64,000 nt of DNA from an uncultured Actinomycetes bacterium. Its GTDB lineage: Bacteria; Actinomycetota; Thermoleophilia; Gaiellales; JAICJC01. Shown here piece by piece: positions 23,964-44,195 of the stretch. Position 1 is the first letter of the stretch; every line of letters begins with the position of its first letter. Position numbers and translations under genes: made by a program. The stretch is taken from positions 24,756-88,755 of the forward strand of contig CAVTSO010000013.1 in assembly GCA_963737445.1 (NCBI GenBank). The letters are read 5' to 3'. The notes beneath the pieces were generated by a model, which was given only the letters and a program-made list of their open reading frames with translations, was not told the origin of the DNA and did not search any database.

Positions 23964-24608
23964 GTGGCCGCCGATCACGATCATGAGCTGACGCTGCACC
24001 CGGCCGGAGCGACGGCGATGCTGGTGCTCGGGCACGGCGCCGGATCGTCGATGACGTCGCCGTTCCTGACCGGGTTCAGCGAGCAGATCGCCGAGCTGGG
24101 CGTGGCCACGCACCGCTTCGACTTCCCCTACATGCGGGCCGGTCGCCGGGCGCCCGACCGCGCGCCGGTGCTGATCGAGGCCTACCGGGAGGCGTGGTCG
24201 CGGGCGGTCGAGCTGGCGGCGGGGCTGCCGGTGTTCGCGGGCGGGCGCTCGATGGGCGGTCGCATCGCGTCGATGGCGGCAGCCGAGGGCATGCCTGCCG
24301 CAGGGCTCGTGTTCCTGGCCTACCCGCTGCATCCGCCCGGCCGGCCCGAGAAGATCCGCGATGAGCACCTGTACGGCCTGCGGATGCCGATGCTGTTCCT
24401 CCAGGGCACCCGCGACAGCTTCGCGCAGCCGGCCTTGCTGACCGAGGTGCTGGAGCGCCTGGGCTCGCGTGCCGAGCTCGTCTCGATAGAGGGCGGCGAC
24501 CACTCGTTCGCCCGGGCCGGCGCCAGCCGCGACGGGCGCCGCATCGGAGCGTCGCTGGCGCTGCTCGCCGCCGCCTTCGTGGAGCGCGTGGTGGCCGGCT
24601 CGGGCTGA
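23964..24608 (+). CDS. alpha/beta hydrolase (KANL3/Tex30-type, dienelactone-hydrolase-like)
   Basis: LVLGHGAGSSMTSPFL...FAGGRSMGGRIAS (nucleophile elbow)...FLQGTRDSF...GGDHSF. The GTG start at 23964 is tentative. Confidence 0.75.
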   Translation: MAADHDHELTLHPAGATAMLVLGHGAGSSMTSPFLTGFSEQIAELGVATHRFDFPYMRAGRRAPDRAPVLIEAYREAWSRAVELAAGLPVFAGGRSMGGRIASMAAAEGMPAAGLVFLAYPLHPPGRPEKIRDEHLYGLRMPMLFLQGTRDSFAQPALLTEVLERLGSRAELVSIEGGDHSFARAGASRDGRRIGASLALLAAAFVERVVAGSG

Positions 24609-24652: not shown

Positions 24653-26098
24653 ATGTTCAGCCTTGACACCGGCCGCGACGTGCTCACTCCCGACCAGCTC
24701 GACCAGGTGCACGAGCGGGCGATGACGGTGCTTGAGGAGATCGGCACGGACGTGCGCCACCCGGCGGCGCTCGAGATGCTGGCCGGGCTCGGCCAGAAGA
24801 TCGACGGCGAGCGTGTCCACTGGGATCGCGAGTTCGTGATGGAGATGCTGGCCCAGGCGCCGCATGCGTTCACGCTGCGGGGTCGCAACCCCGAGCGGGC
24901 GGTGCGGCTGGGCGACTCGAAGCCGGTGCTGACGCCGGTGGGCGGCTCGCCCTTCTGCTCCGACCTCGAGCGCGGACGCCGGGACGGCACGTACGCCGAC
25001 CACGTCGAGCTGATCAAGATGGCGCAGGCCGCCGACCTGATCACCTGCAACCAGAGCGGCACCGTCGAGGCCGGCGATCTCGATGAGAACAGCCGCCACA
25101 TGGACATGGACTACTCGGTGCTGCGGTACTCCGACAAGCCGCACGTCTGTTACGGCACCTCCGGGCCGAAGGCGCGGGACGCCGTCGCCCTGGCGGCGAT
25201 CGCGTGCGGCGGTCGCGAGGCGATCGAGCAGACGCCGGCGCTGATGGGGATCGTCAATCCCAACAGCCCGCTGGTCTGGGACTTCCTGATGGTGGATGCG
25301 TTGTCGGAATGGGCATCGGCAGGACAGCCCGTGGTGATCACGCCGTTCCTGCTGGCCGGGGCGACAGCGCCGATCACGATCGCCTCCGGGCTGGTGCTGA
25401 AGGTGGCGGAGGCGTTGTCTGGCGTGGCACTGGTGCAGGCGATCCGGCCCGGTACGCCCGCCCTGTTCGGATCGTTCTTCACCGCCGTGGACATGCGCAC
25501 CGGCGGTCCCGCCTTCGGCACGCCTGAGTCGGTGCTGGGGACGCTGGCCGGGGGCCAGCTGGCACGGCGGTACGGCCTGCCCTACCGGGGCGGCGGCGGC
25601 CTCTGCTCGTCGAACTCGCTGGACATGGCGTCGGCGGCGGAGACGGCCATGACGCTGTGGGCGACGATGCTGTCCGGCTCGCACCTGGTGATGCACGCCG
25701 CCGGCTGGCTCGAGGGCGGCCTGACGGCGTCGTACGAGAAGTTCGCGATCGACCTCGAGATGCTGCGGATGTTCGCGATGATCGACGAGGGCATCGACAC
25801 CAGCGAGGAGCGGTTCGCGATCGACGCGATGCGGGAGGAAGGGCCGGGCGGGATGTTCCTGGCCGCCGACCACACGCTCGCGCACTTCCGGGAGTGGATG
25901 TTCATGAGCCCGCTGTTCCGCTCGCAGGCCTACGTGACCTGGCAGAAGCAGGGCTCGGCCACCACCGCCACGCTGGCCACCGCCGAGTGGAAGAAGCTGC
26001 TCGAGAGCTACGTGGATCCCGGCATCGACCCGGCCGTCGACGAGGAGCTGCAGGAGTACATGCAGCGGCGCAGGGCCGAGATTGAGGCGGCCCTCTGA
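24653..26098 (+). CDS. MttB-superfamily methyltransferase, non-pyrrolysine type (paralog 1; glycine betaine/quaternary amine:corrinoid methyltransferase-like)
   Basis: Full-length 481-aa MttB-like sequence with no in-frame stop (...NPNSPLVWDFLMVDAL...GQPVVITPFLLAGATAPIT...FGTPES...). Confidence 0.85.
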   Translation: MFSLDTGRDVLTPDQLDQVHERAMTVLEEIGTDVRHPAALEMLAGLGQKIDGERVHWDREFVMEMLAQAPHAFTLRGRNPERAVRLGDSKPVLTPVGGSPFCSDLERGRRDGTYADHVELIKMAQAADLITCNQSGTVEAGDLDENSRHMDMDYSVLRYSDKPHVCYGTSGPKARDAVALAAIACGGREAIEQTPALMGIVNPNSPLVWDFLMVDALSEWASAGQPVVITPFLLAGATAPITIASGLVLKVAEALSGVALVQAIRPGTPALFGSFFTAVDMRTGGPAFGTPESVLGTLAGGQLARRYGLPYRGGGGLCSSNSLDMASAAETAMTLWATMLSGSHLVMHAAGWLEGGLTASYEKFAIDLEMLRMFAMIDEGIDTSEERFAIDAMREEGPGGMFLAADHTLAHFREWMFMSPLFRSQAYVTWQKQGSATTATLATAEWKKLLESYVDPGIDPAVDEELQEYMQRRRAEIEAAL

Positions 26099-28194
26099 TG
26101 GGCCGGGAGCACCGTCACGACATCCTGTTCGAGCCGGTGCGGATCGGGCCGAAGACGCTGCGCAACCGGTTCTACCAGGTGCCTCACTGCACCGGCTTCG
26201 GGGTCGAGAAGCCGTGGACGCAGGCGGCGTTCCGAGGGATGAAGGCGGAGGGCGGCTGGGCGGCGGTGTGCACCGAGTACTGCTCGATCAGCCCCGAGTC
26301 CGACGAGACGCCCTACGTGTCGGCGCGGCTGTGGGATGACGAGGACATGCGGGCGCTGCAGATGATGACCGACTGCGCGCACTCCCACGGCGCGCTGGCC
26401 GGGGTCGAGCTGTGGCACGGCGGCGTCTACGCCGAGGGCCGCGAGTCGCGGCTGCCGCAGCTGGCGCCGTCGCAGATCAGCAGCGACCTGGACAGCGTTG
26501 TGGTGCCAAAGACGATGGAGCCGGCCGACATCCGGCGCGCGCAGGGGGAGTGGGTCGCGGCCGCGAAGCGGGCACGCGGCGCCGGGTTCGACATCATCTA
26601 CGTGTACGGGTCACATACCTACCTGCCCACGCAGTTCCTGTCGCCGGTGTACAACCGGCGCACCGACGCATACGGCGGCAGCTTCGAGAACCGCGCGCGC
26701 TTCTGGTTGGAGGCGATCGAGCTGGTCAAGGAGGCGGTCGGCGACGACGTCGCGATCGCCGTGCGGATCGCCGCCGATTCCCTGGAGCTGTCCGGGGTCC
26801 CGATCGAGGAGGGGCTCGAGTTCATCCGCGCGGCCGACCCGATGGTCGACCTATGGGACGTGGTGATCGGCTCGATGTGGGGGGCGGGACGGCTCGACTC
26901 GGGCCCCTCGCGGTTCTTCGACCAGGGCTACCAGATGACCTGGTCGGGCCGGGCCCGCGAGGCGACCGAGAAGCCGATCGTGGTGGTGGGCAGGTTCACC
27001 GACCCCGACCGGATGGCGAACCTGGTGCGTGGCGGCACAGTCGACCTGATCGGCGCGGCGCGGCCGTCGATCTCGGACCCGTTCCTGCCGGAGAAGATCG
27101 AGCAGGGACGCTACGACGAGATCCGCGAGTGCATCGGCTGCAACGCCTGCTACTCGCGGTCGATCTGGGGCCGGCATCTGGGCTGCACGCAGAACGCCAC
27201 CGCAGGCGAGGAGTACCGGCGCGGGTGGCATCCGGAGCGGTTCGATCACGCCGAGAACGCCGACCGGTCGGTGCTGGTGGTGGGCGCCGGCCCGGCCGGC
27301 ATGGAGTGCACCACGGTGCTGGGCAAGCGCGGCATGGAGCTGGTGCACCTGGTGGACGGGGCCGACGACATCGGTGGCTGCATGAGCTGGATCACGCGCA
27401 TGCCGGGACTCGGGACGTGGGGCCACGTGATTGACTACCGGCGTGCACAGATGGACCGGCTGGACAACGTCTCGCTGGGGCTCGGCACGCGGCTGTCGGC
27501 GGCCGACGTGCTCGACTACGGCGCCCAGATCGTGATCGTGGCGACTGGTTCGCACTGGGCCGGAGACGGCATCAGCGGTGTCACGCGGCTGCCGATTCCC
27601 GGCGCGGATGCCACGCTGCCCCACGTGCTGACGCCGGAGCAGGTGATGGTCGAGGGCAAGCGCCCGCCCGGCAGCCGGGTGGCGGTCGTCGACTACGAGG
27701 GCTACTTCGTCGGTTCGGCGCTGGCCGAGCAGCTGCGCAGCGACGGTTACGAGGTCGAGTTCGTGACAAGCCACGAGGCGGTCGCGCCCTACTGCGATCA
27801 GACGCTCGAGGGCCGGCCGGTGCGGGAGCGGCTGAACGCGATCCGGGTGCCGGTGCACCGGGCGGTGGTGGTCGACCGGATCGACGAGGGCGGGATCGAC
27901 CTGGTGGGCGAGTTCCAGGCCACGTCGCGGCTGGCGGTGGACGGCGTGGTGCTGGTCACGCAGCGGCTCTCGGACGAGGCCCTGTACCGCGAGCTGGCGG
28001 GCGACCCGGCCGCCCTCGAGGCGGCCGGGATCGAGGCGGTCTACCGGATCGGCGACTGCGTCGCACCGCGCCTGATCGCGGACGCGATCTTCGACGGCCA
28101 CCGCCTGGCTCGCGAGATCGACTCGCCCGACCCGGAGCGTCCGTTGCCCTACCTACGCGAGCGGCCGCTGATGGCGGGAACGCCGGCCGGCTGA
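26098..28194 (+). CDS. trimethylamine/dimethylamine dehydrogenase-family (DgcA-like) FMN/4Fe-4S/ADP-binding flavoprotein
   Basis: N-terminal OYE-like TIM barrel with YQVPHC, which aligns with the Cys of 6-S-cysteinyl-FMN in TMADH. Cys cluster CIGCNACYSR...C followed by VLVVGAGPAG. The ATG overlaps the MttB1 stop (TGATG). Confidence 0.85.
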   Translation: MGREHRHDILFEPVRIGPKTLRNRFYQVPHCTGFGVEKPWTQAAFRGMKAEGGWAAVCTEYCSISPESDETPYVSARLWDDEDMRALQMMTDCAHSHGALAGVELWHGGVYAEGRESRLPQLAPSQISSDLDSVVVPKTMEPADIRRAQGEWVAAAKRARGAGFDIIYVYGSHTYLPTQFLSPVYNRRTDAYGGSFENRARFWLEAIELVKEAVGDDVAIAVRIAADSLELSGVPIEEGLEFIRAADPMVDLWDVVIGSMWGAGRLDSGPSRFFDQGYQMTWSGRAREATEKPIVVVGRFTDPDRMANLVRGGTVDLIGAARPSISDPFLPEKIEQGRYDEIRECIGCNACYSRSIWGRHLGCTQNATAGEEYRRGWHPERFDHAENADRSVLVVGAGPAGMECTTVLGKRGMELVHLVDGADDIGGCMSWITRMPGLGTWGHVIDYRRAQMDRLDNVSLGLGTRLSAADVLDYGAQIVIVATGSHWAGDGISGVTRLPIPGADATLPHVLTPEQVMVEGKRPPGSRVAVVDYEGYFVGSALAEQLRSDGYEVEFVTSHEAVAPYCDQTLEGRPVRERLNAIRVPVHRAVVVDRIDEGGIDLVGEFQATSRLAVDGVVLVTQRLSDEALYRELAGDPAALEAAGIEAVYRIGDCVAPRLIADAIFDGHRLAREIDSPDPERPLPYLRERPLMAGTPAG

Positions 28195-29254: not shown

Positions 29255-29284
29255 ACAGTAATGCTAGACGGCCACTAGGATCCG

Positions 29285-29572
29285 GTGATGGCGGAGTACC
29301 GGATCACCTACTGGCGCGAGATCCCCTCGATGGTGACCGCCCGCGACGGTGCGGCCACGTCCAAGGCGGCGCTGCCCGGCCGCTTCCAGGAGGCCATCGA
29401 TGAGGCCGCCATGCGCCAGGGCATGGTCGGCTCCGACGCCTACCTGGAGCAGTGGCATCATGGAGAATGGGAGCGGGCGGACGGAACGCCCGACGAGCTG
29501 GTCGCCACTCTGTCGGAGCGGCTCGACAACGACTACGACGCGGCGCGCCTGGAATCGCTGCTGGAGGTGTGA
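29285..29572 (+). CDS. small protein, probably of the 'virulence factor' (PF13769-like) family that accompanies methyltransferase operons
   Basis: YRITYWREIPSMVTARDG...FQEAIDEAAM. Its stop overlaps the next start (TGATG). The family assignment is from memory and is tentative. Confidence 0.5.
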   Translation: MMAEYRITYWREIPSMVTARDGAATSKAALPGRFQEAIDEAAMRQGMVGSDAYLEQWHHGEWERADGTPDELVATLSERLDNDYDAARLESLLEV

Positions 29573-30465
29573 TGGGACAGATCGCGACACTGCTGGGAGA
29601 CACCCGGCCGGCGCTCAGCGACGGCGCCATCGGCACCATGCTGCAGGCGGCCGGTCTCATGCCCGGCGCCTCGCCCGAGATCTGGAACGTCGAGCGCGCC
29701 GATGCCATGCGCGTGATCCACACCGCCTACGCCGATGCCGGGGCGCGTCTGCTCACCACGAACACCTTCGGCGGCACCCGCCCCCGCCTCGCCCTGCACG
29801 GCCACGAGGATCGCGTGCACGAGCTGAACGAGGCCGGAGCCCGCATCGCCCGCGACGTGGCCGACGCCTGCGGTGCGCTGGTGCTCGGCAGCATCGGCCC
29901 TACCGGCGACCTGATGGAGCCGCTGGGGCTGCTCGGCCACAACGACGCCGTCGACCTGTTCGCCGAGCAGGCCGGCGGCCTGGCCGCCGGCGGCGCCCAC
30001 ATCCTGCTGTTCGAGACGTTCAGCGATCTGGGCGAGGTGCGGGCCGGCGTCGAGGGTGCGCGCCGTGCCGCACCCGACGTGCCCGTGGCCGTGACCATGA
30101 CCTTCGACCTGAAGGGCCATACGATGATGGGCGTCAGCCCGTCGCAGGCGCTGGCCGAGATATCCGCGCTCGATGTCGAGCTGATCGGCGGGAACTGCGG
30201 CAGCGGGCCCGACGAGATCGAGGCGGTGATGGTGACCATGTCCGCCGAGCGTCCGGACGGCGTGCTGCTGCTCGCCCAGAGCAACGCCGGCCTGCCGCAG
30301 CTGGTCGGCGACGAGTTCCGCTACGGCGGCACGCCCGAGGTGATGGCCGACTACGCCCTGCGCATGCAGGAGCTGGGTGTCGATGTGATCGGCTCATGCT
30401 GCGGCAGCACGCCGTCGCACACGGCAGCGATGCGCGAGGCGCTCGGCCTGCACGTGCAGACCTAG
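29572..30465 (+). CDS. homocysteine S-methyltransferase domain protein (stand-alone MetH N-terminal-like module)
   Basis: DGAIGTMLQ...TNTFGG...ETFSDL...GGNCGSGP...GSCCGSTP. The Zn-binding Cys, Cys-Cys pattern of the Hcy-binding barrel is present. Confidence 0.8.
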   Translation: MGQIATLLGDTRPALSDGAIGTMLQAAGLMPGASPEIWNVERADAMRVIHTAYADAGARLLTTNTFGGTRPRLALHGHEDRVHELNEAGARIARDVADACGALVLGSIGPTGDLMEPLGLLGHNDAVDLFAEQAGGLAAGGAHILLFETFSDLGEVRAGVEGARRAAPDVPVAVTMTFDLKGHTMMGVSPSQALAEISALDVELIGGNCGSGPDEIEAVMVTMSAERPDGVLLLAQSNAGLPQLVGDEFRYGGTPEVMADYALRMQELGVDVIGSCCGSTPSHTAAMREALGLHVQT

Positions 30466-30481
30466 CCTGATCAACCATCTA
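30466..30481. repeat. solo copy of the GATGGTTGATC terminal motif, on the minus strand directly after the ferredoxin stop
   Basis: CCTGATCAACCATCTA matches 13 of 15 positions of the right terminus of the element at 41250-41264. Confidence 0.4.
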
Positions 30482-30667
30482 GCCCTCGATCGTGATCGAC
30501 ATGGTCGGGCACGCGTCCGCGGCCGCCTCCACGTCGTCGCGCAGCGCCTCGTCCACGTCCGCCTGATAGCGCAGTAGCTGCGGCGACACCAGCTGGAACA
30601 CCTCCGGGCACTCGATCATGCACTGCCCGTGGTGTTGGCAGGTCTGCTCGTCGACCACCACCCTCAT
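30479..30667 (-). CDS. small ferredoxin (P450-associated type)
   Basis: 62 aa, MRVVVDEQTCQHHGQCMIECPEVF...ADACP. The ATG overlaps the P450 stop (ATGA). Confidence 0.75.
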   Translation of the reverse strand: MRVVVDEQTCQHHGQCMIECPEVFQLVSPQLLRYQADVDEALRDDVEAAADACPTMSITIEG

Positions 30668-31897: not shown

Positions 31898-33337
31898 TCA
31901 GTCGCCGAGCTCTTTCCGGCGCCGGGTGACGAAGTCGGTAAGCTCCTGGCGCAGCTCCGGGTCGATCGCGGGCGGCTCGTACTGCTCCAGCCGCTCGCGC
32001 CAGATCTCGCCGGCCCGCTCCGTCGCGTCCCGCTCGCCCAGCCGCTTCCAGCGCTCGAAGTTCTCTGTCGACGACAGCAGCGGCCGGTAGAAGCAGTCGC
32101 GGAACCGCTCCAGCGTGTGCGCCGCGCCCAGGAAGTGCCCGCCCGGGCCCACCTCCTCGTGCGCCCCGAATGCGAGCGAGGCCTCGTCCACCTCGAGCGG
32201 GGTGAACTCGACCTTCAGCATCCGCAGCACCTCGATGTCGACGATGAACTTCTCGTAGCACGAGACCAGGCCGGACTCCAGCCAGCCGGCCGAGTGCATG
32301 ACCCAGTTGGTGCCGGCCAGGAAGGTCGGGATCATGGTCATGCAGGCCTCGTAGGCCGACTGCGCGTCCACGGTCTGGCTGGACGTGAAGCCGCCGCCGG
32401 ACCGCCACGGCAGGCCGAAGTGGCGGGCGATCTGGCCGGTGCAGAACAGGCCTGTCGCCGACTCCGGGGTGCCGAAGCTGGGCGACCCCGACTGCATGTC
32501 GGTGTTCGAGAGGAACGACCCGAAGATCACCGGCGCGCCCGGCCGCAGCAGCTGCGCCAGCGCGATCCCCGCCAGCGCCTCGGCCATCTGCTGGACGAGC
32601 GTCGCCGGGATCGTTACCGGCGACATCGCGCCCATCAGCAGGAACGGCGTGATCACGACCGGCTGGCCGGCGCGCACGTACTCGAACATGGCCGCCAGCA
32701 TGCGGTCGTCGTAGCGCAGCGGCGAGTTGACGTTGATCAGCCCGATCACGCCCGGCGTGCGCTCGATCGACTCGCGTCCGCCGAGCAGCATCTCGGTCAT
32801 GCGCACCGAGTCGGCCGCGTTGGGCCCGGAGGTGACGGAGCCCATGTAGGGCTTGTCGGTCAGCGTCTGCAGCGCGAACACCATGTCCAGGTGGCGGGAG
32901 TCGAGCGGCCGGTCGTTGGGCTCGCAGATGGTGCCGCCGGCCGAGTCGAGCTCGTCGAACGACTGGGACAGCATGGTCAGCCGCTCGAAGTCCTGCATCG
33001 TGGCGTCGCGGCGGATGTCGCCCTCGCGCACGAACGGCGGCCCGTAGACCGACGCGAACGCCATGTGATCGCCGCCGATGTGGATGTTGTGCTCGGGGTT
33101 GCGGGCCTGCACGTCGAACTCGTGCGGCGCCTTCGCCACCTGTTCGAGCACGAAGTCGGGGTCGAGGAAGACCTTATCGCCGTCGGTCTTCTGGCCGGCC
33201 TTGGCGAACACCTCGACCGCCTCCGGCAGGATGAACTCGACGCCGATCTCCGAGACGATGCGCCGCCAGCCCCCGTCCAGGGTGGCGATCGCCTGCTCTG
33301 ACAGAATCTCGTAGCGCGGCATCCGGTTGACGAACAT
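31898..33337 (-). CDS. MttB-superfamily methyltransferase, non-pyrrolysine type (paralog 2)
   Basis: Full-length MttB-like sequence (..NVNSPLRYDDRMLAAMFEYVRAGQPVVITPFLLMGAMSPVT..FGTPES..) with no in-frame stop. I chose the ATG at 33337, which follows GGGAGAGGG. Confidence 0.85.
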   Translation of the reverse strand: MFVNRMPRYEILSEQAIATLDGGWRRIVSEIGVEFILPEAVEVFAKAGQKTDGDKVFLDPDFVLEQVAKAPHEFDVQARNPEHNIHIGGDHMAFASVYGPPFVREGDIRRDATMQDFERLTMLSQSFDELDSAGGTICEPNDRPLDSRHLDMVFALQTLTDKPYMGSVTSGPNAADSVRMTEMLLGGRESIERTPGVIGLINVNSPLRYDDRMLAAMFEYVRAGQPVVITPFLLMGAMSPVTIPATLVQQMAEALAGIALAQLLRPGAPVIFGSFLSNTDMQSGSPSFGTPESATGLFCTGQIARHFGLPWRSGGGFTSSQTVDAQSAYEACMTMIPTFLAGTNWVMHSAGWLESGLVSCYEKFIVDIEVLRMLKVEFTPLEVDEASLAFGAHEEVGPGGHFLGAAHTLERFRDCFYRPLLSSTENFERWKRLGERDATERAGEIWRERLEQYEPPAIDPELRQELTDFVTRRRKELGD

Positions 33338-33362
33338 TCGCCCTCTCCCTAAGATCTTGGTA

Positions 33363-33382
33363 TGTGGAACAATCGTTCCACA
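33363..33382. promoter_or_regulatory. palindrome TGTGGAAC-aatc-GTTCCACA in the 45-bp divergent region between MttB2 and the IclR gene (candidate IclR operator)
   Basis: Perfect 8-bp arms, read directly. It abuts or overlaps the IclR ATG (33382) and lies 26-45 bp upstream of the MttB2 ATG. Confidence 0.5.
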
Positions 33383-34164
33383 TGATGAGTCGAAAAGCAA
33401 TGACCGGAACCCAGGCGATAGATCGTGCCGCCCAGCTGCTCGTCCTCGTCGTCGAGAACGAGTCGTCGAGCAGCGTCGGCGAGCTGGCCGAGGCCGCCGG
33501 ACTCCCCAAGAGCACCGTGTCGCGCGCCGTGTCGGCGCTCGAGCGGCAGGGCCTGGTGCAGCGGAGCAGCGCCCGCGGCAGCATCCGCCCGGGGCCGGTG
33601 CTGCTGGGCCTGGCCCGGCGGGGCGTCGGCGAGGAGGACATCGCCGAGCTGTGCCGCGAGGCGCTCGACAACCTGGCCGACGCCACCGGCGAGACCATCG
33701 ACCTGGCGGTCGCCGTGCCGGGCGGCTCCGAGCAGTACATCGCCCAGGTCGACAGCCGCCACATCCTGGGCACCACCAACTGGGTGGGACGGCGCCTGCC
33801 CCACCACTGCACCGCGGTCGGCAAGGTGCTGGTCGCGTTCGGCGCGGCGGGCCTCCAGCGGGGCGCGCTGGAGCGGCTCACCCCCGACACCATCACCGAT
33901 CGCGACGCGCTGTCGGCAGAGCTGGATACGGTGCGGGTATGCGGATATGCGACCGCCGTGGGCGAGCTGGAGCCGGGCCTGGTGGCCGTTGCGGCGCCGG
34001 TGCTTGATGCCGATGGCCGGGCCGTGGCTGCGATCAGCATCTCGGGGCCGCAGTTCCGGATACCGAGCGATCGGCTGGACGGGTTTGGCAAACTCCTGAC
34101 GAAGGAGACGGAAACGCTTTCGGCGCGCCTGGGATTCCGGCCGGCCGGGGAGGGAGCAGCATGA
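33382..34164 (+). CDS. IclR family transcriptional regulator
   Basis: N-terminal HTH (VGELAEAAGLPKSTVSRAVSALERQGLV) and a C-terminal IclR effector domain (..GELEPGLVAVAAPVLDADGRAVAAISISGP). Confidence 0.85.
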   Translation: MMSRKAMTGTQAIDRAAQLLVLVVENESSSSVGELAEAAGLPKSTVSRAVSALERQGLVQRSSARGSIRPGPVLLGLARRGVGEEDIAELCREALDNLADATGETIDLAVAVPGGSEQYIAQVDSRHILGTTNWVGRRLPHHCTAVGKVLVAFGAAGLQRGALERLTPDTITDRDALSAELDTVRVCGYATAVGELEPGLVAVAAPVLDADGRAVAAISISGPQFRIPSDRLDGFGKLLTKETETLSARLGFRPAGEGAA

Positions 34165-34829
34165 CCACCGACGAGATCCTGCAAGGGCTGTTCGACAACA
34201 CGCTGATCGGAAACGCGCCGGCCGTCAAGGACCTCACCAACGAGGGGCTGGCCATGGGCATGGATCCCGAGACGCTGCTCTATGACGCCCTGATCCCGTC
34301 GCTGGAGGAGGTGGGCGCCCGCTTCGAGCGCGGCGACTTCTTCGTCCCGGAGATGCTGATTGCCGCGCGGGCAATGCAGGGCGCCCTGGACATCCTGCGC
34401 CCATTGCTGGCCGAGACCGGCGCCAAGCCGATCGGCACGTTCGTGATGGGCACCGTCAAGGGCGACGTGCACGACATCGGCAAGAACCTCGTCAATATCA
34501 TGCTCGAGGGCGCCGGCTTCACCGTATACGACCTGGGCGTGAACGTGGCGCCCGAGAAGTTCGTGGAGCAGGTGCAGGAGCACGAGCCCGACATCGTCGG
34601 CTTCTCGGCCTTCCTGACAACAACCATGCCGATGTTCAAGGCCAACATCAACGCGCTCGAGAAGTCGGGCCTGCGCGACCGCGTGATCGTGATGGTGGGC
34701 GGCGCGCCGGTGACCCAGGAGTACGCCGACGCGGTCGGCGCCGACGGCTACGCCGCCGACGCGTCCACCGCGGTGCGCCTCGCCAAGACCCTGATCGAGA
34801 ACCGCCGATCGGCGGCGACGCCGGCATGA
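34161..34829 (+). CDS. cobalamin (corrinoid)-binding protein, cap plus Rossmann B12 domain
   Basis: B12 lower-ligand motif GDVHDIGKN plus ..SAFLTTTM.. and ..VGGAP.. The ATG overlaps the IclR stop (ATGA). Confidence 0.9.
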   Translation: MTTDEILQGLFDNTLIGNAPAVKDLTNEGLAMGMDPETLLYDALIPSLEEVGARFERGDFFVPEMLIAARAMQGALDILRPLLAETGAKPIGTFVMGTVKGDVHDIGKNLVNIMLEGAGFTVYDLGVNVAPEKFVEQVQEHEPDIVGFSAFLTTTMPMFKANINALEKSGLRDRVIVMVGGAPVTQEYADAVGADGYAADASTAVRLAKTLIENRRSAATPA

Positions 34830-35707
34830 CCCAGGCCGTCTCCGAACGGTTGCGGTCGCTGGCCGCCACGGCCAGCATCGAGGTGACGCCGCGCCACGTG
34901 GCCGCCGTGACCGAGCTCGACGGCGTGTTGCCCGCCGGGACATCGGTCTACATCACAGCGCTTCCGGGAGCCGACCCATGCGACCTGGTGACGGCCGCCG
35001 AGACCATCCGCGCCGCCGGCCACGTGCCGGTGCCGCACCTGACGGCGCGCGCTATCGCCGGCGACGAGGCGCTGGATGCGCTGCTCTCGCAACTCCGCGA
35101 GCGCGCCGCGGTCGACGACGTGCTCGTGATCGCGGGCGGAGGGGCGACGGTCGCCGGCGACTACTACAGCTCTATGGACGTGCTGCGGTCGGGCCTGCTG
35201 GAGCGACACGGCATCTTTCGCGCCGGCGTCGCCGGGCACCCCGAGGGCAGCCCCGACATCTCACCCGAGGCGATCCTCGAGGCCCTCGCCGAGAAGAACG
35301 CCTTCGCCGCCGCATCGGCGATCGAGCTGCGCATCGTCAGCCAGTTCGCGCTGGCGCCCGAGCCGTACGTGACCTGGGAGCGCGGGCTGCGTGAGGCGGG
35401 AAACCGGCTGCCGGTGGTGGCAGGCATCCCCGGCGTGACCTCGCCCCCCTCGCTGCTCAAGTTCGCGCTGGCCTGTGGCATCGGCCCCTCCGTGGAGGTG
35501 CTCCGCAAGCAGTCGGGCGGGTTGCTGAAGCTGGCAACGACCCGGCTGTGGCGGCCCGACCAGCTGGCCGAGGACATCGCGCAATCGACTGTCCACGATC
35601 CCGGCAGCCTGATCGAGGGCCTGCATCTGTTCCCCTTCGGCGGGGTCGAGCGATCGGCCCGATGGCTGGCCGAGATGCGCACCGCGCCGGCTGCGGTGCC
35701 GGGATGA
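34826..35707 (+). CDS. methylenetetrahydrofolate reductase (MetF)-like protein
   Basis: MTHFR-like barrel segments (SIEVTPR...VPHLTAR...VLVIAGG...GVAGHPEG...IVSQFA...IPGV). The ATG overlaps the upstream stop (ATGA). Confidence 0.7.
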   Translation: MTQAVSERLRSLAATASIEVTPRHVAAVTELDGVLPAGTSVYITALPGADPCDLVTAAETIRAAGHVPVPHLTARAIAGDEALDALLSQLRERAAVDDVLVIAGGGATVAGDYYSSMDVLRSGLLERHGIFRAGVAGHPEGSPDISPEAILEALAEKNAFAAASAIELRIVSQFALAPEPYVTWERGLREAGNRLPVVAGIPGVTSPPSLLKFALACGIGPSVEVLRKQSGGLLKLATTRLWRPDQLAEDIAQSTVHDPGSLIEGLHLFPFGGVERSARWLAEMRTAPAAVPG

Positions 35708-35725: not shown

Positions 35726-36589
35726 ATGCAGACCACCATTGAGTCGCGGTCGCGCACGGTCGTGATCGGGGACGGCGCGCCGTTCTGCGTGATCGGCGAG
35801 CGCATCAACCCCACCGGCCGCAAGGCCTTCCAGGCGCAGCTGCAGGCCGGCGACCTGTCGCAGCTCGAGATCGACGTGGCCGAGCAGGTGGCCGGCGGCG
35901 CCGACGTGCTCGACGTCAACGTGGGCGATCCGCTGGCCGACGAGATCGAGCTGATGCGGGCTGCCGTGCCGATGGTGCAGGGCCTGACCGACCTGCCGCT
36001 GTGCATCGACTCCTCCATCATCGAGGCGCTCGAGGCCGGCCTCGGGGCGTACGAGGGCAAGGCGCTCGTCAACTCGGTCACCGGTGAGGACGAGCGGCTG
36101 AACCTGATCCTGCCGATCGTGGCCCGCCACGGCGCGGCGGTGATCGGCCTCGCCAACGACGACGAGATCCCGATGGAGCCGGAGCGCCGGCTGGAGGTGG
36201 CCCGCAAGATCGTCTCGGCCGCCGGCGACCACGGCATCCCGCCGCAGGACGTCGTGATCGACCCGCTGGCGATGCCGGTCGGCGCCGAGCCGCGCGCGGT
36301 CACGCTGTTCCTGGAGACGGTGCGGCTGATCCGCGACGACCTGGGCGTGAACATGACCTGCGGCGCCAGCAATACCTCGTTCGGGCTGCCCGGCCGCCAC
36401 ACCCTGGGCGCCGCCTTCCTGGCGGTCTCACAGAGCCACGGGTTGACCAGCGCCATCATGGACGCGCGCGCTCGCGAGTGCGTCGAGTCGGTGCGAGCCA
36501 CCGACTTCCTGCTCGGCCAGGACGAGTGGGGCGCGCGCTGGATCGCCGCGCACCGGGCCAAGCTGGCGGCGCAGGCCGCGACAAGCTAG
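35726..36589 (+). CDS. pterin-binding methyltransferase (methyl-corrinoid:tetrahydrofolate methyltransferase; MetH pterin domain/AcsE-like)
   Basis: VIGERINPTGRK...DVLDVNVG...LCIDSS...ALVNSV...GASNTSFGLP are typical DHPS-like pterin barrel motifs. Confidence 0.8.
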   Translation: MQTTIESRSRTVVIGDGAPFCVIGERINPTGRKAFQAQLQAGDLSQLEIDVAEQVAGGADVLDVNVGDPLADEIELMRAAVPMVQGLTDLPLCIDSSIIEALEAGLGAYEGKALVNSVTGEDERLNLILPIVARHGAAVIGLANDDEIPMEPERRLEVARKIVSAAGDHGIPPQDVVIDPLAMPVGAEPRAVTLFLETVRLIRDDLGVNMTCGASNTSFGLPGRHTLGAAFLAVSQSHGLTSAIMDARARECVESVRATDFLLGQDEWGARWIAAHRAKLAAQAATS

Positions 36590-36591
36590 CG

Positions 36592-38451
36592 GTGTCGGTG
36601 GACGCCGAGACGATCGAGCCAGGAACCGGACGCGTCCGGCTGACGTTCGCGCCCGACGGCGGCGAGGTGCGCGTCCCGGCCGGCACCACCGTGTTCGACG
36701 GGGCCAGCTGGAACGGCATCGCCATCGACTCGACCTGCGGCGGCCACGGCACCTGCAAGAAGTGCAAGGTGCGGATCACCGACGGCGAGGTGCCGGTCGA
36801 CACGCTGGATCCGCGCGCGTTCAGCCCCGACGAGCTGCGCGGCGGCTGGCGGCTGGCCTGCCGCGCGATCGCCACCCACGACCTCGCCGTCGAGGTGCCG
36901 CCGCTGCAGACCCGCCCCAAGGCGGCGCTGGTCGGCGTCGGCCGCCACGTGATCCTGCGCCCGTCCGTGCAGAAACGCTTCCTGGAGCTGGAGGAGCCGT
37001 CGCTCGAGGACCAAGCGGCCGACATGGAGCGCGTGGTGGATGCGGTCGAGGACTTCGAGCTGCGGGTTGAGCTGGGCGCCGCGCGCGGCATCGGCCGCAC
37101 CCTGCGGTCATCCAACTTCAAGGTCACCGCCGTCATCTGCGACGACGTGCTGATCGACGTCGAGCCCGGTGACACCACCGAGCGGCGCCACGCGATCGCC
37201 TTCGACCTGGGCACGACCACGGTGGTGGCGACGCTGCTCGACCTCGCCACGGGCCAGCCGCTGGCCGTGCGCTCGATGCTGAACCGCCAGCAGCCGTTCG
37301 GCGCGGACGTGATCTCGCGCGTCTCGGCCACGATGATGGACCCGGACGCGCTGGAGATGCTCCAGCAGCGGGCGCATGAGACGATGAACGGCCTCGCCGG
37401 CGAGGTCTGCGAGGAGGCCGGCCTGTCCCCGACGGAGGTGTACGAGATCGTGGTCTGCGGCAACGTCACGATGATGCAGCTGGCGCTGGGCATCGACCCC
37501 GAGCCGCTGGGCATGTCACCCTTCATCATCACCGCCCGGCGGCTGCCGCCGGCGGTTGCCTCCGACTTCGGCGTGCGCGTGCACCCGCGCGCGCCGGCCG
37601 CCGTGTTCCCGGCGCTGGGCGCCTACGTGGGCGGAGACATCGTCGCCGGCATGCTCGCCACCGGCCTCACCCGCGACCGCCGCGTGCGCCTGTTCATCGA
37701 CGTCGGCACCAACTCCGAGATCGCGCTCGGCTCGAGCGAGCGGGTGGTCGCAACTGCAGCGCCGGCCGGGCCCGCATTCGAGGCCGCCCAGATCCGCTGC
37801 GGCATGCGTGCCGCCGAGGGCGCGATCGAGGGCGTCGCGATCAGCGGCGAGGAGATGTCCCTTGAGGTGATCGGCGACGCCACGCCGGTCGGCATGTGCG
37901 GCTCCGGCCTGGTGGATGCCGTCGCCCAGCTGGTGGCGGCCGGCCTGCTCGACCACTCCGGCCGCTTCATCCCCGACGCCGCCGCCGCCGAGCTGCACCC
38001 GCAGCTGAGCACGCGTCTGGTGAAGGTGGGCGAGGAGCGGGTGTTCGTGCTGGCATGGCGCGGAGACGACCCCGCGAACTCGATCTACCTGTCGCAGCGC
38101 GACGTGCGCGAGCTGCAGTTCGCCAAGGCCTCGATCGCGACCGGCTGGCGGATCCTGATCAAGGAGCTCGGCCTCGGCGAGGACGAGATCACCCAGGTGC
38201 TGCTGGCGGGCAGCTTCGGCAGCTACCTGTCGCCTGCCAGCGCCGTGCGCATCGGCCTGGTGCCGAAGCTGGCGCTGCCGCGCATCATCTCGGCCGGGAA
38301 CGTGGCCGGTGAGGGCGCCAAGATGGCGGCGCTGTCGCTGCGGGAGCGGGCGGCGGCCGACGCGATTCTGGATGAGGTCGAGTACGTGGAGCTGTCCGGG
38401 CGGGCAGACTTCAACGACATGTTCATGGACGAGCTGGCGTTCCCGGGATGA
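36592..38451 (+). CDS. corrinoid reductive activase (RACo/RamA-like): 2Fe-2S ferredoxin domain plus ASKHA ATPase domain
   Basis: N-terminal [12 protein letters not shown] plant-type ferredoxin motif. ASKHA-like [11 protein letters not shown]...[12 protein letters not shown]...MCGSGL follows. The GTG start is 2 nt after the upstream stop. Confidence 0.8.
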
Positions 38452-39026
38452 CGACGGCCGTGATCGCATGCGGCGCGCTCGCCTTGCACGTGAACGCCAT
38501 CGCCGAGCGGCGCGGCTGGGAGATCGATGTGCACCCGCTGCCGCCGGAGCTGCACAACCGCCCGGAGCAGATCGCACCTGCCGTCGGCCGTCTGGTGGAC
38601 GAGCTGGCCGGCCGCTACCAGCGCGTGGCGGTCGCCTACGCCGACTGCGGCAGCTACGGAGCGCTCGACCACGAGCTCCGTCGCCGCGGCATCGAGCGGC
38701 TGGAGGGCGACCACTGCTACGACGTGTTCGGGAGGCCGGAGGTGGCCGAGGCGCTGGCCGAGCAGCCCGGCACCTACTTCCTGACCGATTTCCTGGCGCG
38801 CACCTTCGACCGCACGGTCTGGCGGTCGCTGGGCCTCGACCGGCATCCCGAGCTGCGCGACGACTACTTCCACTCCTACACCCGGGTGATCTGGCTGGCG
38901 CAGCGGCGAACGCCCGACCTGCTGGAGCTGGCCGAGCGGGCGGCCGCCATGCTGGGGCTGCCGCTGGAGGTGCGCGACGTGGGCGAGTCGGGGCTGGAGG
39001 CACAGCTGGAGCGCCTCGCGGCATGA
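38448..39026 (+). CDS. DUF1638 domain protein
   Basis: [11 protein letters not shown]...[11 protein letters not shown]...GDHCYDVF...YFLTDFLAR. Start and stop both overlap the neighbours (ATGA on both sides). Confidence 0.75.
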
Positions 39027-40153
39027 GCGACGCGACCTCGATGCGCGCGGCACTGCTGCCCGCTCCGGGCACGCCGCTGCGGGTGGTCGAGCTCGAGCTG
39101 GCCGCGCCCGGCCCCGGTGAGGTGCTGGTGCGTCTGCGCTCCAGCGGCGTCTGCCAGGACGACCTGAACCTGCTCGACGGCACGGTCGACGTGCCCGCCC
39201 CGGTCGTGCCCGGCCACGAGGGAGCCGGCGTCGTCGAGGCTCTGGGCGAGGGCGTGCAGGGGCTTGCGCCCGGCGATCACGTGGCGCTGTCCTGGGCCCC
39301 CTACTGCGGCAGGTGCGAGGAGTGCCTGCGCGATCTGCCGCACCTGTGCGGCACGGCCTGGCCGCTGATGCTGGGCGGCGGTCTGCTCGACGGCACCACC
39401 CGCCTCCGCTTCGGCGGGGCGGAGGTGCACCACTACTGCTTCCTGTCCACCTTCGCGGAGCGTGCGGTCGTGCCCGCCCGGTCGTGCGTCCAGATCCCCG
39501 CCGACGTGCCGTTCGAGGTGGCGGCGCTGCTCGGCTGTGCGGTGACGAGCGGCGTCGGCGCCGTCTGGCGCACCGCCGGCGTGCGGCCGGGCGAGCGGGT
39601 GGCGGTGATCGGTACCGGCGGCACCGGGCTCTCGGCTGTGATGGGCGCGGTCGCCTCGGGTGCGTCGCAGGTGATCGCCGTCGACCGCCGGCACGAGCGC
39701 CTCGAGCGCGCCCAGCAGCTCGGGGCCAGCGCCGTCGTGCAGTGGCAGGGTGAGCCGGAGCGGGTCGCCGAGGCGGTGGTGTCGGCCAGCGGCGGCGGCG
39801 TCGACTACGCCATCGACTGCACCGGACGGCCCGGTCCGATGCGGGCCGCGTTCCTGTCCACGCGCAAGCGGGGAGCCGCCGTGATGGCCGGCATCCCGCG
39901 CGCCGAGGCCGAGCTGACGGTGCCCGCGCGGTCGATCCCGCGGATGGAGCGACGGGTGCTGGGATCGATCTACGGGTCGGCCCGGCCCGACCGCGACTTC
40001 CCGCTGATCCTCGACGCCTACCGGCGCGGACGGCTGCCGCTCGACCGGCTGATCTCACACCGGCTGACCCTGGACGAAGTCGGCGCCGGCATCGACGCGG
40101 TGCGCTCGGGCGATGCCACGCGGGTGGTGCTCGACCTGGGAGGCGACGCGTGA
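39023..40153 (+). CDS. zinc-dependent alcohol dehydrogenase family (class III / formaldehyde dehydrogenase-like)
   Basis: GVCQDDL...[16 protein letters not shown]...CGRCEECL (structural Zn Cys cluster)...[12 protein letters not shown] (NAD fold). Confidence 0.8.
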
Positions 40154-40593
40154 GCGAGCCCGCGACCGGCGGCTGCCTGTGCGGCGCAGTGCGTTACGAG
40201 GTGCGGGGGCCGCTGCGCGACATCCTGATCTGCCACTGCGTCGAATGCCGGCGCTGGCACGGCAACGTTGCGGCCAGCACCGCGGCTGCCCGCGGCGATC
40301 TGGTCCTGACCGGGCAGCGCGGGCTGCGCTGGATCGCCGGCCCCGAGAGCGACGCGCACGCACGCCGGGGCTTCTGTGGCGAGTGTGGTTCCAGCCTGTT
40401 CTGGGACGCGCCTGGGCGTGACTACGTCGCGATCGCGGCCGGGTCGCTGGACGGCGAGACCGGGCTGCGCATCGCCGGCCACTGGTTCACCTCCCAGAAA
40501 GGCGACTGGTACGAGCTGCCCGACGATGGCCTGCCACACCACGAGCGCTCGGCCGCGGTCGAGGGCGGCTCGCCGAGTGGTAAAGTGATTTGA
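40150..40593 (+). CDS. GFA (glutathione-dependent formaldehyde-activating enzyme/CENP-V) family protein
   Basis: GGCLCGAVRYEV...CHCVECRRWHG...FCGECGSSLFW. The GTG overlaps the ADH stop (GTGA). Confidence 0.8.
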   Translation: MSEPATGGCLCGAVRYEVRGPLRDILICHCVECRRWHGNVAASTAAARGDLVLTGQRGLRWIAGPESDAHARRGFCGECGSSLFWDAPGRDYVAIAAGSLDGETGLRIAGHWFTSQKGDWYELPDDGLPHHERSAAVEGGSPSGKVI

Positions 40594-41078: not shown

Positions 41079-41264
41079 GAGATGGTTGATCGGTTGTTCG
41101 CGAGCCTGGCCGCTGCGAACGGCTTGAAGTCGGAGGAGGCTGGGGTAGCTACGGCTGCGAACCGTCGTCTCCGTCCGCGATCTGCGTGATCGCAGATCGC
41201 TCATGACCGGCGCAAGGCGATGCCTTGCGCCTTGGACACCACGGAGATACCGATCAACCATCTC
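41079..41264. mobile_element. MITE-like 186-bp element, copy A: perfect 15-bp terminal inverted repeats and two internal 10-bp-stem hairpins
   Basis: The TIRs are GAGATGGTTGATCGG (41079-41093) and CCGATCAACCATCTC (41250-41264). The hairpins are GCGATCTGCG-tgat-CGCAGATCGC (41177-41200) and GGCGCAAGGC-gat-GCCTTGCGCC (41209-31). It carries no ORF. Confidence 0.6.
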
Positions 41265-43200: not shown

Positions 43201-43226
43201 CAGCAGCGCGATCAGGGCGACGGGCT

Positions 43227-44195
43227 CTATCCGGCGCCCGCCTTGCGCAGTTCGGCCGTGATCGCCGGGATCACCTCGTGCAGGTCGCCGATCACGGCGT
43301 AGTCGGCGTTGGCGATGATCGGCGCCTCCGGATCGACGTTGACCGCGATGATCCGCTTGGCGCCCTTGCAGCCGGCCATGTGCTGGGTGGCGCCGCTGAT
43401 GCCGCAGGCCAGGTACACCTCCGGCGCGATCTTGGTGCCGGTCTGACCGACCTGGTCGGTGTGCGACCGCCAGCCGGCGATAGTGACGGCCCGCGAGCAC
43501 CCGACGGCTCCGCCCAGCAGCGCCGCCAGCTCCTCGGCCGGTGCGAAGCCCTCCGGAGAGCCGGCGCCGCGCCCGCAGCTGACCACGAACTTGGCGTCCG
43601 CCAGGTTGACCCCGCCCTCGCTGCTCTGCTGCACGGTCTCGACCACCCGCACCACCAGGTCGGCTTCGCCCAGCGACGGCGAGAAGCGCTCGACGGCCGC
43701 CGGCGCACCGCCCACCTCGGCCGCCTCGACCGTGTGCGGCGCCACCGTCAGCAGCTTGACGGGGCCGTGCAGGCGCGCGTCCTCGAGCAGGCTGCCGCCC
43801 CAGCGGATGCGGGTCACGGTCAACGGGTCGCCCGCCTCTGCGGCGATGCAGTTCGCGGCCAGCGGCAGGTCGCCGATCGCCGCCGCGTGCGCCAGCACCT
43901 CGTTTCCGCGCTCGCTGCCGGCGGCCGCCACGGCCGACGGGGACAGCCGCTCGATCAGCTCGCCGATGCAGCGTGCCAATGCCACGGGCGCATGGGTGGC
44001 GAGCACCTCGTGGTCGGCGATGTGCGCGGTCGCCACCCCGTGGGCGCCCAGCGCGGCGGCGGCGTGCTCGGCGCCGGGACCGGCCAGCAGCGCGTGCAGC
44101 GGTGCGCCGCCGGCGATCTCACGGGTCAGTGCGATCGCCTGCAACGAGGCGTCGTCGGGCCGGCCGTCCTGATGCTCGACGTAGACCAGCGTCAT
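43227..44195 (-). CDS. etfA: electron transfer flavoprotein alpha subunit
   Basis: C-terminal FAD-binding signature ..VVSCGRGAG...GCSRAV...DQVGQTGTKIAPEVYLACGISGATQHMAG... The ATG overlaps the etfB stop (ATGA). Confidence 0.9.
   Translation of the reverse strand: MTLVYVEHQDGRPDDASLQAIALTREIAGGAPLHALLAGPGAEHAAAALGAHGVATAHIADHEVLATHAPVALARCIGELIERLSPSAVAAAGSERGNEVLAHAAAIGDLPLAANCIAAEAGDPLTVTRIRWGGSLLEDARLHGPVKLLTVAPHTVEAAEVGGAPAAVERFSPSLGEADLVVRVVETVQQSSEGGVNLADAKFVVSCGRGAGSPEGFAPAEELAALLGGAVGCSRAVTIAGWRSHTDQVGQTGTKIAPEVYLACGISGATQHMAGCKGAKRIIAVNVDPEAPIIANADYAVIGDLHEVIPAITAELRKAGAG

Follow-up and report, generated by a model that had tools for sequence, protein, structure and literature searches.

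A conserved gene pair in Gaiellales joins a corrinoid-type methyltransferase to a trimethylamine dehydrogenase-like flavoprotein and may remove two methyl groups in turn from one quaternary amine

In soil, betaines, carnitine and derivatives of choline are of major importance as osmolytes and as sources of nitrogen and carbon. The known aerobic routes for removing the first methyl group of such compounds run through Rieske oxygenases, homocysteine methyltransferases or corrinoid methyltransferases, and flavoenzymes can act on a tertiary amine. Which aerobes demethylate quaternary amines, and how, is only now emerging. An aerobic glycine betaine methyltransferase/split methionine synthase, MtgBCD(E), was described in 2025 in marine bacteria, in Ruegeria pomeroyi, and up to seven pfam06253 paralogues per genome were proposed to feed different methylated compounds into one core (PMC12478193). 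For MtgB of Desulfitobacterium hafniense, a structure-function study of 2026 found that the trimethylammonium group is bound by Tyr97 and Phe356 through cation-pi contacts and the carboxylate by Arg312 and His348; Arg312 is conserved in every characterised non-pyrrolysine MttB member, and the substrates of these are without exception acidic quaternary amines, and the Y97A exchange raises the Km several hundred-fold (PMC13080624). Here we describe a locus in a stretch of 64,000 nucleotides (the window) from an uncultured Gaiellales actinobacterium (assembly GCA_963737445.1, contig CAVTSO010000013.1, positions 24,756 to 88,755 of the forward strand), in which a gene of the MttB superfamily (MttB1) runs directly into a gene for a flavoprotein related to trimethylamine dehydrogenase (TMADH). 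Judging from the sequences, we put at roughly 60% the probability that the two form a module for taking the first two N-methyl groups off a single quaternary amine by two different chemistries.

A filter on third-position G+C recovered both genes on the plus strand of the window, which has a G+C content of 70%: 24653-26098, coding for 481 aa, and 26098-28194, coding for 698 aa. The initial annotation had noted that the MttB1 stop and the flavoprotein ATG share a nucleotide (TGATG), and they do. The TGA at 26096-26098 and the ATG at 26098-26100 have one base in common (CTCTGATGG), so that stop and start overlap by 1 nt in a junction that reads ...GCCCTCTGATGGGC.... Within the 3' end of MttB1, at 26084-26087 and 10 nt before the flavoprotein ATG, lies a Shine-Dalgarno-like GAGG. 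A 1-nt overlap by itself is frequent in operons, and the further claim that the two proteins are produced stoichiometrically goes beyond what can be read from a stop/start overlap. We scanned 23-29.5 kb for promoters and terminators and saw nothing resembling either within the pair or near it, and an Rfam scan of 20-48 kb gave no match.

The closest proteins, up to 94% identical, came from metagenome-assembled genomes of Gaiellales (Thermoleophilia). The pair recurred in 16 further Gaiellales/Thermoleophilia loci, with flavoprotein identities of 63-89%, and in all 16 the MttB stop lay -14 to +3 nt from the flavoprotein start. Linkage was called from tblastn coordinates and from contigs with precomputed Pfam labels (the greedy gene caller based on third-position G+C gave some shadow open reading frames). 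In a GTDB scan with one genome per species, an MttB1-type gene stood directly upstream in L003-L007 and L019 among the best 80 loci with relatives of the flavoprotein; the pair was also present on contigs retrieved through homologues (L001, L002, L085, L086 and L091). A metagenome scan with an alignment of the MttB1 clade found it in 4 of the 4 loci that were at least 73% identical to MttB1 and had downstream sequence (L095, L097, L098 and L109). The flanks of the pair varied from locus to locus and included an MMPL transporter, electron-transfer flavoprotein (ETF) genes, a GMC oxidoreductase, an amino-acid permease and cobU-cobT-cobS. In L002 the ETF genes were directly beside the pair; in L091 (8001-13860) the pair was followed by cobU, cobT (DBI_PRT) and cobS, genes of cobalamin nucleotide-loop assembly. 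Since the flanks differ while the junction stays, the two genes appear to travel as a unit. One soil metagenome contig, L094 (JGI Ga0164306_10003043), carried an MttB1 99% identical to that of the window next to the same DUF72 neighbour and is probably from the same population.

A second, independent arrangement of this kind was found in six soil metagenome loci (L118 4001-7900, L133, L135, L136, L137 and L139). In these, an MttB gene with Tyr at the position of MtgB Tyr97 was followed after about 10 nt by an 823-aa gene with the domains DAO-FAO_M-GcvT, the layout of the dimethylglycine/sarcosine dehydrogenase family (DMGDH type). The MttB proteins of these pairs were 46-50% identical to MttB1 and carried the motif PVYGPPF. 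The design in which an N-demethylase of another kind directly follows a corrinoid methyltransferase thus recurs, the Tyr97 type being paired with DMGDH, and the type with Gly at this position (Gly97), to which MttB1 belongs, with a TMADH-like enzyme. We found no description in the literature of an MttB operon with a TMADH-like gene, nor of MttB-DMGDH gene pairs. The difference in partner is the main reason for thinking that MttB1 acts on something other than glycine betaine.

MttB1 matched the Pfam family MTTB (PF06253) with 555 bits over residues 9-477 of 481. Its frame is open from 24653 to 26095 and holds no in-frame TAG, hence no pyrrolysine; against the pyrrolysine-type model TIGR02369 it scored 284 bits, the cut-off being 525. 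We rejected an identity as a pyrrolysine MttB for want of a UAG codon. Matches in the PDB were 4yyc, a Sinorhizobium meliloti protein (381 bits), and, over the full length, D. hafniense MtgB (348 bits). MttB1 and all its orthologues keep Arg312 and His348 of MtgB and have Gly in place of both Tyr97 (motif GGSPF) and Phe356; MttB1 has Trp at the position of Ile352. Tyr97 is carried by MtgB, by 4yyc and by the second MttB protein of the window (MttB2), which is 43% identical to MttB1. In a survey of representatives of the family at 50% identity, position 97 was highly variable and Arg312 almost invariant, which makes position 97 a likely determinant of specificity. By these sequence features MttB1 belongs to the non-pyrrolysine branch of the MttB superfamily, but its predicted substrate motif is not that of a strict MtgB. 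No fusion of MttB with the flavoprotein turned up among the best 150 MttB1-family representatives. One protein of the representative library (P0256) is a 744-aa MttB-family member with about 260 extra C-terminal residues, possibly a fusion with another module.

In the flavoprotein, Pfam models for Oxidored_FMN (275 bits), Pyr_redox_2 and OYE-like_second_a-b were matched, and the N-terminal OYE FMN barrel, the 4Fe-4S motif and the C-terminal nucleotide-binding domains are all present. Among all PDB sequences the best match was TMADH of Methylophilus methylotrophus (1djn), with 729 bits from end to end and 50.8% identity over about 690 residues, ahead of histamine dehydrogenases (544 and 517 bits), 6l6j (511 bits) and the 2,4-dienoyl-CoA reductase FadH (148 bits). 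TMADH is also its closest characterised relative, and the automated JGI annotation calls its homologues dimethylamine/trimethylamine dehydrogenase. With 148 bits against 729, a dienoyl-CoA or enoate reductase assignment was rejected. The initial annotation had named a grouping with dienoyl-CoA reductases as fatal to its proposal; the protein falls instead in the amine-dehydrogenase branch. The sequence features that had been pointed out are likewise in place. The motif YQVPHC occupies residues 26-31, with Cys31 aligned to Cys30 of TMADH, the site of 6-S-cysteinyl-FMN; the cysteine cluster (C345-x2-C348-x2-C351...C363) aligns with the 4Fe-4S cysteines 345/348/351/364; and the GxGxxG fold corresponds to VVGAGPAG at residues 394-401 (G396, G398 and G401).

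In TMADH numbering, the flavoprotein keeps Cys30, Tyr60, Ser74, Trp105, Tyr169, His172, Tyr174, Arg222, Asp267 and the four cluster cysteines, which in its own numbering include Cys31, Tyr61, the Tyr-His-Asp triad, Arg223 and Cys345/348/351/363, beside GxGxxG at 396-401 and a clade-specific Arg265. The catalytic set of an amine dehydrogenase thus appears intact. Of the aromatic bowl of TMADH (Y60/W264/W355), Y60 is kept; the W264 position is small and variable, and the loop of W355 is one residue shorter, with its aromatic residue, a Trp, shifted by two positions. An alignment separates a Y60/S74/W105 group, which contains the crystallised TMADH, from a Q/T/F group represented by Hyphomicrobium and Methylotenera loci. 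The window protein has the Y/S/W pattern, and Q60/T74/F105 was confined to this distinct proteobacterial group; Q/T/F is the pattern of dimethylamine dehydrogenase (DMADH), as in the Hyphomicrobium enzyme. Judged by its residues, the flavoprotein belongs to the TMADH-type branch of amine dehydrogenases, but is neither TMADH proper, from which its bowl and its clade set it apart, nor DMADH.

A neighbour-joining tree of 95 sequences with 100 bootstraps, its reference sequences copied from the aligned parts of PDB entries, placed all MttB-linked flavoproteins in one clade (98/100). Their nearest relatives in the tree, with 56/100 support, were actinobacterial homologues without an MttB gene, which adjoin polyamine-type ABC transporters, class-III aminotransferases or a DDAH-like gene. 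The TMADH/DMADH clade fell outside both, so that the window protein is not a member of it; the outgroup, made up of histamine dehydrogenases, 6l6j and a homologue from S. meliloti pSymA, split from the rest in 100/100 replicates. Seven residues never vary within the linked clade and are seldom found outside it, and five of them lie in three known active-site segments of TMADH: A226 by Arg222, G262 and R265 in the Trp264-Asp267 loop, and A350 and Y352 by Trp355. Trp264 itself is replaced by small, variable residues throughout the clade. The Arg two residues before Asp267 was found in 17/17 linked proteins and in none of the unlinked proteins examined, which have Glu (TMADH/DMADH), Lys (actinobacterial relatives) or Gln there. 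A pocket remodelled in this way would suit an amine that bears an anionic group. This pairing, conserved and specific to one clade, backs the proposal of the initial annotation that the two enzymes carry out sequential demethylations in a shared pathway.

The predicted order of events follows from the chemistry, since a quaternary nitrogen has no lone pair and is closed to a flavin amine dehydrogenase, so that methyl transfer must come first. With the quaternary amine as methyl donor, MttB1 would methylate the Co(I) form of a corrinoid protein, presumably the MtgC-like protein at 34161, which may be the acceptor for MttB2 as well. An MtgD-like enzyme would pass the methyl group on to tetrahydrofolate, where a MetF2-like enzyme would oxidise it; possibly it goes to homocysteine instead, via an MtgE-like protein. 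RACo and DUF1638 proteins would hold the cobalt reduced. In the second step the TMADH-like enzyme would oxidise the resulting tertiary amine to a secondary amine and formaldehyde, and the electrons would run from 6-S-cysteinyl-FMN over the 4Fe-4S cluster to ETF, and from there through a DgcB/EtfD-like protein to quinone. A GFA-family protein and a Zn-dependent dehydrogenase could clear the formaldehyde. The overlapping codons would keep both enzymes co-expressed, so that the product of the first step is removed at once.

Genes for each of these functions are present in the window (Table 1). The corrinoid protein and the etfBA genes were found where the initial annotation had placed them (34161-34829; 43227-44950, minus strand), and its suggestion that MttB1 shares this corrinoid protein fits the published model of several pfam06253 paralogues on one MtgC/MtgD core (PMC12478193). 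The region 29452-39026 holds the aerobic set MtgC, MtgD, MtgE, MetF2, RACo/RamA and DUF1638 together with a pfam06253 gene. The best NCBIfam match of the corrinoid protein was MtgC, at 209 bits and below cut-off, and the MtgE-like protein, which resembles the homocysteine module of a split methionine synthase, scored 294 bits, below the cut-off of 338, against the NCBIfam model for betaine-homocysteine methyltransferase. The MetF2-like gene lies between the mtgC-like and mtgD-like genes, as does metF2 in R. pomeroyi, and DUF1638 accompanies corrinoid reactivation genes in aerobic MtgBCD systems (PMC12478193). The Zn dehydrogenase and GFA genes are a likely sink for formaldehyde from oxidative demethylation. 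A minus-strand operon consists of the DMGDH-family gene, etfB, etfA and the DgcB-like gene, followed by a GntR regulator and a PALP-dependent enzyme; its DgcB-like protein is 31% identical to the products of DgcB-like genes that follow TMADH-clade genes elsewhere.

Table 1. Coordinates of the gene pair, its junction and associated genes in the window.
Feature	Coordinates	Strand	Basis or remark
Alpha/beta hydrolase (Abhydrolase_11)	24015..24608, start approximate	+	Pfam 171 bits; ends 44 nt before MttB1
MttB1	24653..26098	+	Non-pyrrolysine MttB-superfamily corrinoid-dependent methyltransferase, 'Gly97' type; ATG start
Gene junction	26084..26100	+	GAGG, then overlapping TGA/ATG
TMADH-family FMN/4Fe-4S amine dehydrogenase, MttB-linked clade	26098..28194	+	Pfam, PDB alignment, tree
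Homocysteine S-methyltransferase-domain protein, MtgE/BHMT-like	29452..30465, start approximate	+	Pfam S-methyl_trans 207 bits
MttB2	31898..33400	-	Tyr97 type, resembles MtgB/4yyc; divergent from corrinoid operon
IclR-family regulator	33364..34164	+	Pfam IclR_C, HTH_IclR; head of corrinoid operon; same order in L085
MtgC-like corrinoid (B12-binding) protein	34161..34829	+	Pfam B12-binding, B12-binding_2
MetF2-like, weak methylenetetrahydrofolate-reductase homologue	34826..35707	+	Pfam MTHFR 24.1 bits, at cut-off
Pterin-binding methyl-corrinoid:tetrahydrofolate methyltransferase, MtgD/MtgA-like	35726..36589	+	Pfam Pterin_bind 89 bits; NCBIfam PRK07535 295 bits (cut-off 259)
RACo/RamA-type reductive activase (2Fe-2S + ASKHA ATPase)	36586..38451, start approximate	+	Pfam Fer2, RACo_linker, Raco_middle, RACo_C_ter; NCBIfam AcsV-like 413 bits
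DUF1638 protein	38448..39026	+	Pfam 86 bits
Class-III-like Zn alcohol/formaldehyde dehydrogenase	39059..40153	+	Mycothiol-/glutathione-dependent formaldehyde dehydrogenase models 254-257 bits, below cut-offs
GFA-family protein	40150..40593	+	GFA 70 bits; below curated cut-offs of mycothiol-/glutathione-dependent formaldehyde dehydrogenase models; overlaps Zn dehydrogenase gene, directly after DUF1638
DgcB/EtfD-like Fe-S protein, two CCG domains	41254..43230, start approximate	-	Pfam CCG, 4Fe-4S dicluster
etfA	43227..44189	-	tblastn, NCBIfam ETF alpha model
etfB	about 44192..44950	-	tblastn, NCBIfam ETF beta model
Dimethylglycine/sarcosine-dehydrogenase-family enzyme (DAO-FAO_M-GCV_T)	44953..47472	-	Pfam; first gene of etf operon

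The likeliest substrate of the proposed module is an acidic betaine other than glycine betaine, to which we give a little less than an even chance. Candidates include the betaines of proline and hydroxyproline, gamma-butyrobetaine and carnitine, as well as related compounds. Tentatively, the pair could be an unrecognised aerobic route for such a betaine in soil Gaiellales, in which the two enzymes might form a complex that hands the tertiary amine over directly and splits the methyl groups between tetrahydrofolate and formaldehyde/ETF. Glycine betaine itself is a rather unlikely substrate, and with it the reading in which MttB1 is a second MtgB that makes dimethylglycine and the flavoprotein a DgcA analogue that gives sarcosine via ETF. 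The surroundings speak for it: the window is an island of the glycine betaine type, with genes like those of MtgC/D/E, ETF genes, a DMGDH-family gene and a PALP dehydratase; in L002 the pair and its ETF genes have as neighbours a creatinase-like gene and a cluster resembling heterotetrameric sarcosine oxidase, through which sarcosine would be processed further; and GMC oxidoreductases of the choline-dehydrogenase type occur near the pair in L085 and L086. A carboxylate, such as dimethylglycine carries, would also fit the clade-specific Arg. Position 97 argues the other way, as MttB1 and all its orthologues have Gly where the Y97A exchange in MtgB is so costly in Km (PMC13080624), whereas MttB2 of the same window, which adjoins mtgC, keeps the Tyr, and Tyr97-type paralogues elsewhere are the ones followed by DMGDH. 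A DMGDH-family enzyme is, moreover, already encoded in the etf operon of the window. The conversion of betaine to dimethylglycine that the initial annotation gave as an example is therefore still possible but weakened, and its other example, trimethylamine to dimethylamine, is unlikely, for there is no pyrrolysine in MttB1, and in the flavoprotein Trp264 is missing and Trp355 shifted. The same features make it quite improbable that the flavoprotein is a true tri- or dimethylamine dehydrogenase with MttB1 supplying or consuming simple methylamines, for example from tetramethylammonium to trimethylamine to dimethylamine. Such a route would agree with TMADH as the closest characterised relative (51%), with Y60, S74 and W105 of the TMADH type, with the JGI annotations and with the MttB1-like gene of L092, which lies near glutamate-synthase-like and DAO genes that possibly belong to an N-methylglutamate pathway. 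Against it stand the loss of W264 from the bowl and the shortened W355 loop, an invariant loop Arg that would be unexpected for a small cationic substrate, and the absence from MttB1 of the pyrrolysine used by trimethylamine methyltransferases; the characterised non-pyrrolysine MttB enzymes all act on acidic quaternary amines (PMC13080624), and tetramethylammonium in Methanococcoides is reported to be demethylated by an MtmB homologue and not by an MttB (PMC13044021).

The two genes might also be co-transcribed and yet act on different molecules, the flavoprotein being a general amine dehydrogenase that feeds ETF and is placed here for co-regulation with methyl-group catabolism. Related flavoprotein clades do without an MttB neighbour, some MttB1-like genes lack the flavoprotein, and no fusion of the two was seen among the best 150 family representatives. 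We nevertheless regard this as improbable, because linkage tracks phylogeny exactly, down to the Arg signature, because the pair moves as a unit among unrelated neighbourhoods, and because the parallel MttB-DMGDH pairs show the same two-step logic. Scarcely credible is a role of the flavoprotein in serving the corrinoid system, for example by supplying electrons that keep cobalt reduced, with no amine demethylation. Its FMN, 4Fe-4S cluster and nucleotide-binding domain, its tight linkage to a corrinoid-dependent enzyme and the cobalamin-assembly genes after the pair in L091 would be in keeping with such a role; but a RACo-type activase and DUF1638 are already present in the window, the catalytic residues of amine dehydrogenases are conserved including the FMN-linking Cys, and the potential of the TMADH cluster is far too high for reduction of Co(II) to Co(I) without ATP coupling.

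Several points weigh against the two-step reading or its reach. Each scan covered the best 80 of about 600 candidate loci, so that the linkage is recorded for Thermoleophilia; the host organism is known from metagenomes only. Some MttB1-like genes, about 65% identical, have no flavoprotein gene beside them: those of L092 and L093 stand alone, and those of L089 and L090 are followed by a GcvT-like gene. No second demethylase adjoins a Gly97 MttB clade at 56-63% identity. Arg312, nearly invariant across the MttB family, discriminates little between substrates. In the flavoprotein, V344 and Y442 of TMADH, both linked to ETF docking in that enzyme, are replaced by Glu and His. Finally, an AF2 model of the flavoprotein, built from a 9-sequence alignment, reached a mean pLDDT of 57.5, with the active-site loops below 50, and is too poor for the geometry of Arg265 and FMN.

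The arrangements in relatives of the two genes deserve description in their own right. L089 and L090 (8001-10855) have an identical gene order: 200 nt behind an MttB1-like gene (66%, Gly97 type) comes a GcvT-like aminomethyltransferase of 399 aa that stands alone. In L102, L103 and L105 (about 70-6400), an operon holds a corrinoid protein, an MtgD-like protein, RACo, DUF1638 and a Gly97-type MttB (57-59% identical to MttB1); a convergent regulator with MerR and B12-binding domains (CarH-like) comes next, and there is no second demethylase. Among the flavoproteins, a member of the MttB-less clade in L087 (52-3185; WSKD loop, no MttB upstream) adjoins a gene of the DDAH/arginine-deiminase family, and DDAH would free dimethylamine from dimethylarginine. 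Genes of the TMADH/DMADH clade (L030-L079; for example L045 8001-12380, L056 8001-12427 and L049 8001-12446) came from Methylophilaceae, Methylophaga, Paraburkholderia, Cupriavidus, Zoogloea, Steroidobacteraceae and Solirubrobacterales. Within 0.3-2 kb, most of them are followed by a gene for a DgcB-like membrane Fe-S/CCG protein, often with ETF beta and alpha genes, the layout of dgcAB-fixAB, which suggests that DgcB-type proteins are the general outlet for ETF in this enzyme family. Homologues in the plasmid collection came from S. meliloti pSymA, Ralstonia, Paracoccus and others; the Ralstonia gene lies among trp/pdx genes and has no DgcB-like neighbour, and the record of pSymA carries no annotation.

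Upstream of the pair in the window, the Abhydrolase_11 gene may share the MttB1 transcript; in L085, too, a gene of this family adjoins DUF72. The window has two DUF72 genes (6898-8040 and 23212-23955), one of which is a conserved divergent neighbour of the hydrolase/MttB1 region, likewise in L085 and L094. Between the pair and MttB2, at 28439-31881, lie minus-strand genes for an S-adenosylmethionine (SAM)-dependent methyltransferase and a cytochrome P450, and in L085, an 86%-identical relative, a GMC (choline-dehydrogenase-type) oxidoreductase takes their place.

Gaiellales are abundant and largely uncultured soil bacteria. These results suggest that soil Actinomycetota use the B12-dependent core described in marine bacteria with extra substrate-specific paralogues, and that the chemically required passage from methyl transfer at a quaternary nitrogen to oxidation of the tertiary amine by a flavoenzyme became an operon on at least two occasions, once with a TMADH-like and once with a DMGDH-like partner. 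They also suggest that the well-studied TMADH family contains an uncharacterised clade with a remodelled substrate pocket. If the module serves a betaine other than glycine betaine, the MttB family and the TMADH family would each gain a new substrate specificity. For these genes, the pipeline labels 'trimethylamine methyltransferase' and 'dimethylamine/trimethylamine dehydrogenase' should be taken with caution.

Set against the described systems, the module is an extension of the aerobic MtgBCD system. With MtgBCDE of R. pomeroyi the window has in common a pfam06253 methyltransferase, MtgC, MtgD, MtgE, MetF2, RamA/RACo, DUF1638 and several MttB paralogues (PMC12478193); it differs in its host, a Gaiellales actinobacterium, and in that MttB1 stands away from the core, translationally coupled to a TMADH-family dehydrogenase. 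A search of the text of PMC12478193 found no mention of DgcA or TMADH. MttB1 shares with D. hafniense MtgB (PDB 2qne/9yce; PMC13080624) the TIM barrel of the MttB superfamily, a full-length alignment (348 bits) and R312 and H348, but has Gly for Y97 and F356 and Trp for Ile352. Likewise, the flavoprotein resembles TMADH of M. methylotrophus W3A1 (PDB 1djn/2tmd) in its three-domain layout, its catalytic and cluster residues, its GxGxxG ADP site and the ETF genes in the region, and departs from it in its separate clade, the lost W264, the shortened W355 loop, the invariant Arg before D267 and the changes of V344/Y442 to Glu/His; TMADH-clade genes are mostly followed by a DgcB-like gene, whereas the window flavoprotein is preceded by MttB.

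By role and gene order, the flavoprotein can be set beside DgcA. In DgcAB-FixAB of Pseudomonas aeruginosa and Vibrio natriegens, an OYE-type flavoprotein also acts, together with ETF and a DgcB-type Fe-S protein, on the tertiary amine left by the first demethylation of betaine; there the first step is taken by the Rieske oxygenase GbcAB (PMC12093977), whereas in the proposed module it would be corrinoid-dependent. Furthermore, dgcA is directly followed by dgcB and etf genes; in the window, an opposite-strand gene for a SAM-methyltransferase comes after the flavoprotein, and the DgcB-like and etf genes are 13 kb off (41-45 kb), in an operon with the DMGDH-family gene. Closest in operon logic are the soil MttB-DMGDH pairs, in which the gap between MttB and an oxidative N-demethylase is likewise no more than about 10 nt, although the DAO-FAO_M-GcvT partner captures the methyl group as methylene-tetrahydrofolate and their MttB belongs to the glycine betaine type with Tyr97. 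Both kinds of enzyme were already known, and what is new is the pairing of the two.

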